Of a DNA stretch of 64,000 bases, positions 28,259 through 28,423 are shown one piece after another (position 1 is the first letter of the stretch; each line of letters starts with the position of its first letter). The notes beneath the pieces were generated by a model. It was not told the origin of the DNA. It searched no databases and saw only the letters and a program-made list of their open reading frames with translations. The stretch lies in NCBI RefSeq assembly GCF_003019035.1, contig NZ_CP027447.1, one strand, 5' to 3'. This DNA is from Escherichia coli. Its GTDB lineage: Bacteria; Pseudomonadota; Gammaproteobacteria; Enterobacterales; Enterobacteriaceae. The translations under genes and the position numbers were made by a program.

Positions 28259-28347
28259 TGCTTCTACCAGGGGCTTAAAGAAGATAAACGTTAGCACACT
28301 GCGAGCGAGGCGACGACCATTATTGTCGATTAAATTGTGTCTGCGGC

Positions 28348-28378
28348 TTGACCTTCCCGTAAGGGGAAGGACTATGCT
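28348..28378 (+). promoter_or_regulatory. MerR-type cueO promoter with CueR operator
   Basis: -35 TTGACC, 19-bp spacer containing dyad CCTTCCC-gtaa-GGGGAAGG, -10 TATGCT; about 45 bp upstream of cueO start. Confidence 0.8.
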
Positions 28379-28423
28379 CAACGTTTGATTTTGTTTCGCC
28401 TGCTTAAGAATAAGGAAATAACT

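Follow-up and report, generated by a model that had tools for sequence, protein, structure and literature searches.

What drives the two genes that diverge from the short gap between yacC and cueO of Escherichia coli, and does one control element serve both? The gap lies in a 64,000-nt segment of the E. coli chromosome running from secA to fhuB (hereafter, the window), which is collinear with the chromosome of strain SCU-301 and differs from it by 3 mismatches over 64 kb. Positions 28259-28423 are exactly the 165-bp intergenic gap between the start codon of yacC (28258, minus strand) and the ATG of cueO (28424). A 501-bp stretch around it was identical (100%) to SCU-301 and was matched in 5424 of 5426 complete E. 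coli genomes. The flanking genes, which are divergent, are as follows.

27911-28258, minus strand: yacC coding sequence, 115 aa, YacC family pilotin-like protein (ORF list, RefSeq of SCU-301, NCBIfam NF037975, Pfam PF09691).
28424-29974, plus strand: cueO coding sequence, Tat-exported multicopper oxidase, 516 aa (ORF list, RefSeq, NCBIfam).

The yacC product matched NF037975 with 196.8 bits (NCBIfam), and speE and speD lie downstream of yacC on the same minus strand. CueO carries a Tat signal and three multicopper-oxidase domains, and it matched the NCBIfam equivalog NF008205 with 979.6 bits against a cutoff of 525. Across Enterobacteriaceae, YacC, a protein of unknown function, shows 83-100% identity, compared with 74-98% for its neighbor CueO.

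A sequence-only reading of the gap had proposed a MerR-type promoter for cueO with the hexamers TTGACC and TATGCT 19 bp apart. Both hexamers were confirmed at that spacing, and a pattern search recovered the full 31-mer from the −35 through the −10. The parts of this promoter (PcueO) are given below.

28348-28353, plus strand: −35 hexamer TTGACC (sequence reading, pattern search).
28354-28372, plus strand: 19-bp spacer, 2 bp over the sigma-70 optimum.
28373-28378, plus strand: −10 hexamer TATGCT (sequence reading, pattern search).
28352-28370, no strand assigned: CueR operator predicted from sequence, perfect dyad CCTTCCC-N5-GGGAAGG.

The outer coordinates of the dyad stood as first read, but its arms did not. 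They had been given as CCTTCCC-gtaa-GGGGAAGG, with 7 and 8 nt, while the true repeat is 7/5/7: CCTTCCC at 28352-28358 and GGGAAGG at 28364-28370, 100% complementary and separated by 5 nt. The first 2 bp of the dyad are also the final two of the −35, a gap of 2 bp separates its end from the −10, and it includes the published CueR core CCTTCC-N7-GGAAGG with zero mismatches.

We compared these elements with chance levels obtained from shuffled sequences. The exact core had a single copy in the 64 kb, where 0.00 were expected, and the composite pattern TTGACCTTCC-N7-GGAAGG-NN-TANNNT with up to 3 mismatches likewise occurred once in the window, against 0.00 expected. The hexamer pair at 19-bp spacing with up to 1 mismatch gave 1 match against 0.27 expected. 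The hexamers with their 19-bp spacing are not significant alone; the signal is carried by the dyad and its register. A standard sigma-70 scan of positions 27700-28700 with 16-18 bp spacers found no promoter. The empty scan agrees both with the over-long spacer that had been proposed for PcueO and with an extended −10 with a weak −35 on the yacC side. When up to 2 mismatches to the core were allowed, 5 matches were found in the window against 1.66 expected; we rejected those with 2 mismatches, at 29439, 58147, 60546, and 60706, as further CueR-like sites since they are at chance level.

PcueO of E. coli, also called the yacK promoter, is a published element (Outten et al. 2000; Yamamoto & Ishihama 2005; both as cited in PMC8169799); the published promoter is the identical locus, with zero differences from the promoter seen here. 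CueR acts on promoters with a 19-bp spacer through the core given above and controls copA and cueO (PMC8169799). The yacC-yacK(cueO) divergon was already given in 2006 as a CueR site in a promoter with a 19-nt spacer (PMC1526738). A PcueO-lacZ fusion was activated by copper, and PcopA and PcueO were named as the sole two CueR target promoters (PMC9396075); in contrast, PMC4507017 treats the cueO promoter as one among many CueR operator sites. Thus every aspect of this element had been described before. That CueR is the protein bound at PcueO, and that the promoter depends on copper, we take from this literature. The exact operator string was not found in print in the literature searched, and a literature search on HprR and cueO gave no evidence of a second regulator.

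The promoter of copA, which is the structurally characterized CueR promoter, was taken from K-12 and from SCU-301 and aligned with PcueO (copA, CTTGACCTTCCCCTTGCTGGAAGGTTTAACCT; cueO, CTTGACCTTCCCGTAAGGGGAAGGACTATGCT). Both promoters have CTTGACC at the −35, a 19-bp spacer, and a copper-homeostasis gene downstream. They also share one register, in which the core begins at base 5 of the −35 and stops 2 bp short of the −10. They differ in the central 7 bp (CCTTGCT in copA, CGTAAGG in cueO) and in the −10 (TAACCT in copA, TATGCT in cueO), and the cueO dyad, unlike that of copA, runs to 7 bp per arm. Comparison of the dyad with known CueR sites, as had been proposed, thus gave a zero-mismatch fit to the published core and the same register as PcopA.

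Promoters of other MerR-type metal or redox systems, namely Tn21 Pmer/MerR, PzntA/ZntR, and PsoxS/SoxR, are like PcueO in that the −35 and −10 flank an over-long spacer of 19-20 bp that holds a dyad operator. They are unlike it in responding to other effectors and in their half-site sequences, those of the ZntR and SoxR operators having no known relation to the CueR core. Could the dyad be the operator of another MerR-family regulator, such as ZntR, SoxR, or a GolS-like sensor, rather than of CueR? The general architecture would allow it, for a dyad inside a 19-20 bp spacer is the common design of all MerR-family promoters (PMC1526738, PMC9909328). However, the half-sites fit the CueR core without a mismatch and agree with PcopA in both sequence and register, and the gene downstream encodes a copper oxidase. 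We consider an operator of another family member extremely unlikely. The zero-mismatch core, the PcopA register, the copper oxidase gene downstream, and the published listing as a CueR site together support the CueR promoter reading, and the element is almost certainly PcueO, the sigma-70 promoter that depends on CueR and drives the multicopper oxidase gene cueO.

The gene for the regulator itself, cueR, is annotated in the SCU-301 genome outside the window and was found in 5424 of the 5426 complete E. coli genomes. As a separate observation, 1593 E. coli genomes have a cueR with only 90-95% identity to K-12, which is unusually divergent for a core gene. In SCU-301, the strain closest to the window, an island of ca. 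25 kb lies between ybaT and cueR and encodes giant BapA/SiiE-like adhesins along with a type I secretion system (positions 14338-40314 of retrieved locus L086, outside the window); this island may be linked to the divergence of cueR.

To place published transcription starts on the window, we used the identity of positions 28240-28440 with K-12 MG1655 136,899-137,099, where every base is the same; the coordinates of U00096.2 and NC_000913.3 are taken here to be equal in the PcueO part of the chromosome. The plus-strand entries covered in the Cappable-seq supplement gave two starts, and the first of these defines a short cueO leader.

28384, plus strand: main cueO transcription start among those entries (U00096.2 137,043, score 6.37; PMC4782308 supplement 1).
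28343, plus strand: minor transcription start among those entries (U00096.2 137,002, score 1.797; PMC4782308 supplement 1).
28384-28423, plus strand: cueO 5′ leader of ca. 40 nt, with the Shine-Dalgarno sequence AAGGA at 28412-28416.

As listed there, the main start lies 6 nt past the −10, with 5 nt in between, which is one below the commonest spacing. Its position just past TATGCT supports TTGACC and TATGCT as the active promoter pair. The minor start falls in the non-conserved stretch upstream of the PcueO −35, and a transcript from it would cross the CueR operator.

These starts bear on whether the dyad, within a constitutive promoter, could be a palindrome that arose by chance or a hairpin of RNA or DNA acting as an attenuator or terminator. 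Its GC-rich 7-bp stem with a 5-nt loop could fold, and the listed minor start would provide a transcript running through it. On the other hand, the dyad is upstream of the listed main start at 28384 and is therefore absent from the cueO mRNA made from that start. No T-run follows the dyad, and a terminator scan was empty there. Chance is countered by the expectation of 0.00 for the core. Furthermore, the two arms vary independently among species, with the left more constrained than the right, whereas the arms of a stem would co-vary, and the 19-bp spacing is invariant at all 79 box-bearing loci. A fortuitous palindrome or hairpin is hardly credible as an account of this dyad, and it is best read as the CueR operator of PcueO.

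Within the cueO leader, the Shine-Dalgarno sequence is the only conserved part. A riboregulator was considered for the leader and rejected, since the fold was no better than that of shuffled sequences (z = +0.64) and RNAalifold gave 0 pairs over 22 species. A search of the leader against Rfam gave no credible match; the sole one was a chance match to a eukaryotic snoRNA, below threshold. An inverted repeat, TTAAGAA/TTCTTAA (28404-28410 and 28439-28445), flanks the cueO Shine-Dalgarno sequence and start codon. This repeat is probably due to chance, as it is not conserved in other species and its stability is not above that of shuffles. The palindrome AACGTT occurs twice in the gap, at 28380-28385, closely behind the cueO −10 and spanning the listed main start at 28384, and at 28287-28292, overlapping the candidate −10 on the yacC side described below; only the latter copy is conserved across species.

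To evaluate conservation, 80 cueO loci from different Enterobacteriaceae species (CueO 74-98% identical) were fetched by a protein-based search, so that the motif played no part in their selection. The CueR box was present at 79 of the 80 loci, and in all 79 the spacer was exactly 19 bp and the operator kept the same register. Among these 79 loci, the −35 was TTGACC in 77 and TTGACG in 2, and the −10 was TATGCT in 39, TAAGCT in 38, and another sequence in 2. The left half-site was CCTTCC in 68 of the 79. In contrast, the most frequent right half-site was GGAGGG (43 loci), while GGAAGG was found in only 12. The half-sites vary independently between species, and the left arm is under tighter constraint than the right. 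Since most other genera have GGAGGG as the right half-site, the perfect palindrome of E. coli is not required. Information content peaks from the C preceding TTGAC through the −10 and falls to ca. 0-0.6 bits directly upstream of CTTGAC and a few bases past the −10. Within E. coli, a 66-bp promoter stretch was found in 5424 of the 5426 complete genomes and was at least 99% identical in 5033 of them, whereas the surrounding 501 bp reached at least 99% identity in only 2591 E. coli records. This analysis thus shows the sequence anatomy of PcueO, its conservation, its transcription start, and that the genome encodes cueR.

The single locus among the 80 with neither a CueR box nor yacC is that of Intestinirhabdus alba (positions 2100-2500 of retrieved locus L075), in which a methyl-accepting chemotaxis gene lies upstream of cueO. 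Here, an element of ca. 270 bp made of nested inverted repeats, with outer arms of 25 nt at 2217-2241 and 2459-2483 of L075, abuts the cueO Shine-Dalgarno sequence. No Rfam match was found on this element.

MerR-type regulators activate transcription by distorting DNA (PMC1526738, PMC8169799). In PcopA, activation by CueR was almost lost when the core was moved by +1 bp and was weakened when it was moved by −1 bp (PMC8169799). By analogy with PcopA, whose structure has been solved, we infer that PcueO works in the same way. RNA polymerase would be unable to engage the −35 TTGACC and the −10 TATGCT together, because these good hexamers are 19 bp apart. A CueR dimer would sit on CCTTCC-N7-GGAAGG, which takes in most of the spacer as well as the last bases of the −35. 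Bound without metal, CueR would hold the DNA in a shape that supports little transcription; with Cu(I) bound, it would bend and under-twist the spacer, so that the hexamers would be realigned and transcription would start at ca. 28384.

What, then, drives yacC? yacC is the divergent neighbor of cueO in 78 of the 80 loci. When 74 distinct intergenic sequences were aligned and profiled for conservation, two conserved blocks stood out on the yacC side, ca. 50 bp from the CueR box in E. coli.

28288-28296, minus strand: candidate extended −10 TGCTAACGT of a yacC(-speED) promoter, with a predicted start near 28281.
28311-28327, minus strand: second conserved block, at a −35 position and an UP-element-like position, with a putative functional role.

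Read on the minus strand, the first block (28287-28300) gives TGCTAACGT, which has the extended −10 form TGnTAnnnT. This element was found in 78 of 78 loci, as TGnTAACGT in 73 and as TGCTAACTT in 5, and at a constant 28-29 nt from the yacC ATG in these 78 loci. The base "n" changes (C, T, or A), while TG and TAAC.T are kept. The second block has TCGtCG, a poor match to TTGACA, at the −35 position, together with the A/T-rich AATAA(a).

Xie, Tabor and Tabor (J Bacteriol, 1989) reportedly mapped the start of the speED operon to ca. 475 bp upstream of speE and placed an ORF of 115 codons in the intervening stretch. The start predicted here, 28281, and the speE ATG at 27805 are 476 bp apart, and 115 codons is also the length of yacC. 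Since both values agree with the reported mapping, the module is probably the yacC(-speED) promoter. The SMRT-Cappable-seq supplements, in which a minus-strand yacC start was sought, mention none of the three genes.

It had also been claimed that yacC shares the cueO control region. This is right for position, but otherwise it does not stand, given a conserved module ca. 50 bp from the CueR box at a variable distance. The intergenic length ranges from 140 to 200 bp between species, and the indels fall between the CueR promoter and the yacC module, the distance from module to module being ca. 45 to ca. 100 bp. Because the interspecies length differences fall between them, PcueO and the yacC promoter look to be arranged back to back and independent of each other.

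The gap might instead be one bidirectional unit, in which CueR at 28352-28370 also regulates yacC(-speED) and couples copper stress to YacC or spermidine synthesis. The arrangement itself invites this idea: yacC is divergent at nearly all loci, the intergenic region is short, and the modules stand back to back only ca. 50 bp apart in E. coli. Against this, MerR-type activation acts on the spacer of its own promoter, and the CueR box lies ca. 70-90 bp upstream of the predicted yacC start. The indels, moreover, are placed exactly between the modules, without fixed helical phasing, and the CueR targets named in PMC8169799 and PMC9396075 are only copA and cueO. Joint control of both genes by CueR is improbable, and we retain two promoters that look independent.

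The correct re-identification of this textbook regulatory element serves as a positive control and is not a discovery. There are three modest additions. The first is that neither the 19-bp spacing nor the operator register varies over 79 Enterobacteriaceae species, with the right half-site usually GGAGGG; the second is that the yacC module is independently conserved and joined to PcueO by a linker of variable length; and the third is that one species, Intestinirhabdus alba, has cueO but no CueR box. There is a slim chance that CueR bending at PcueO tunes the yacC(-speED) promoter, or that 28311-28327 is the site of an undescribed regulator. Either of these, if true, would link copper stress to the highly conserved, uncharacterized YacC and to spermidine synthesis.
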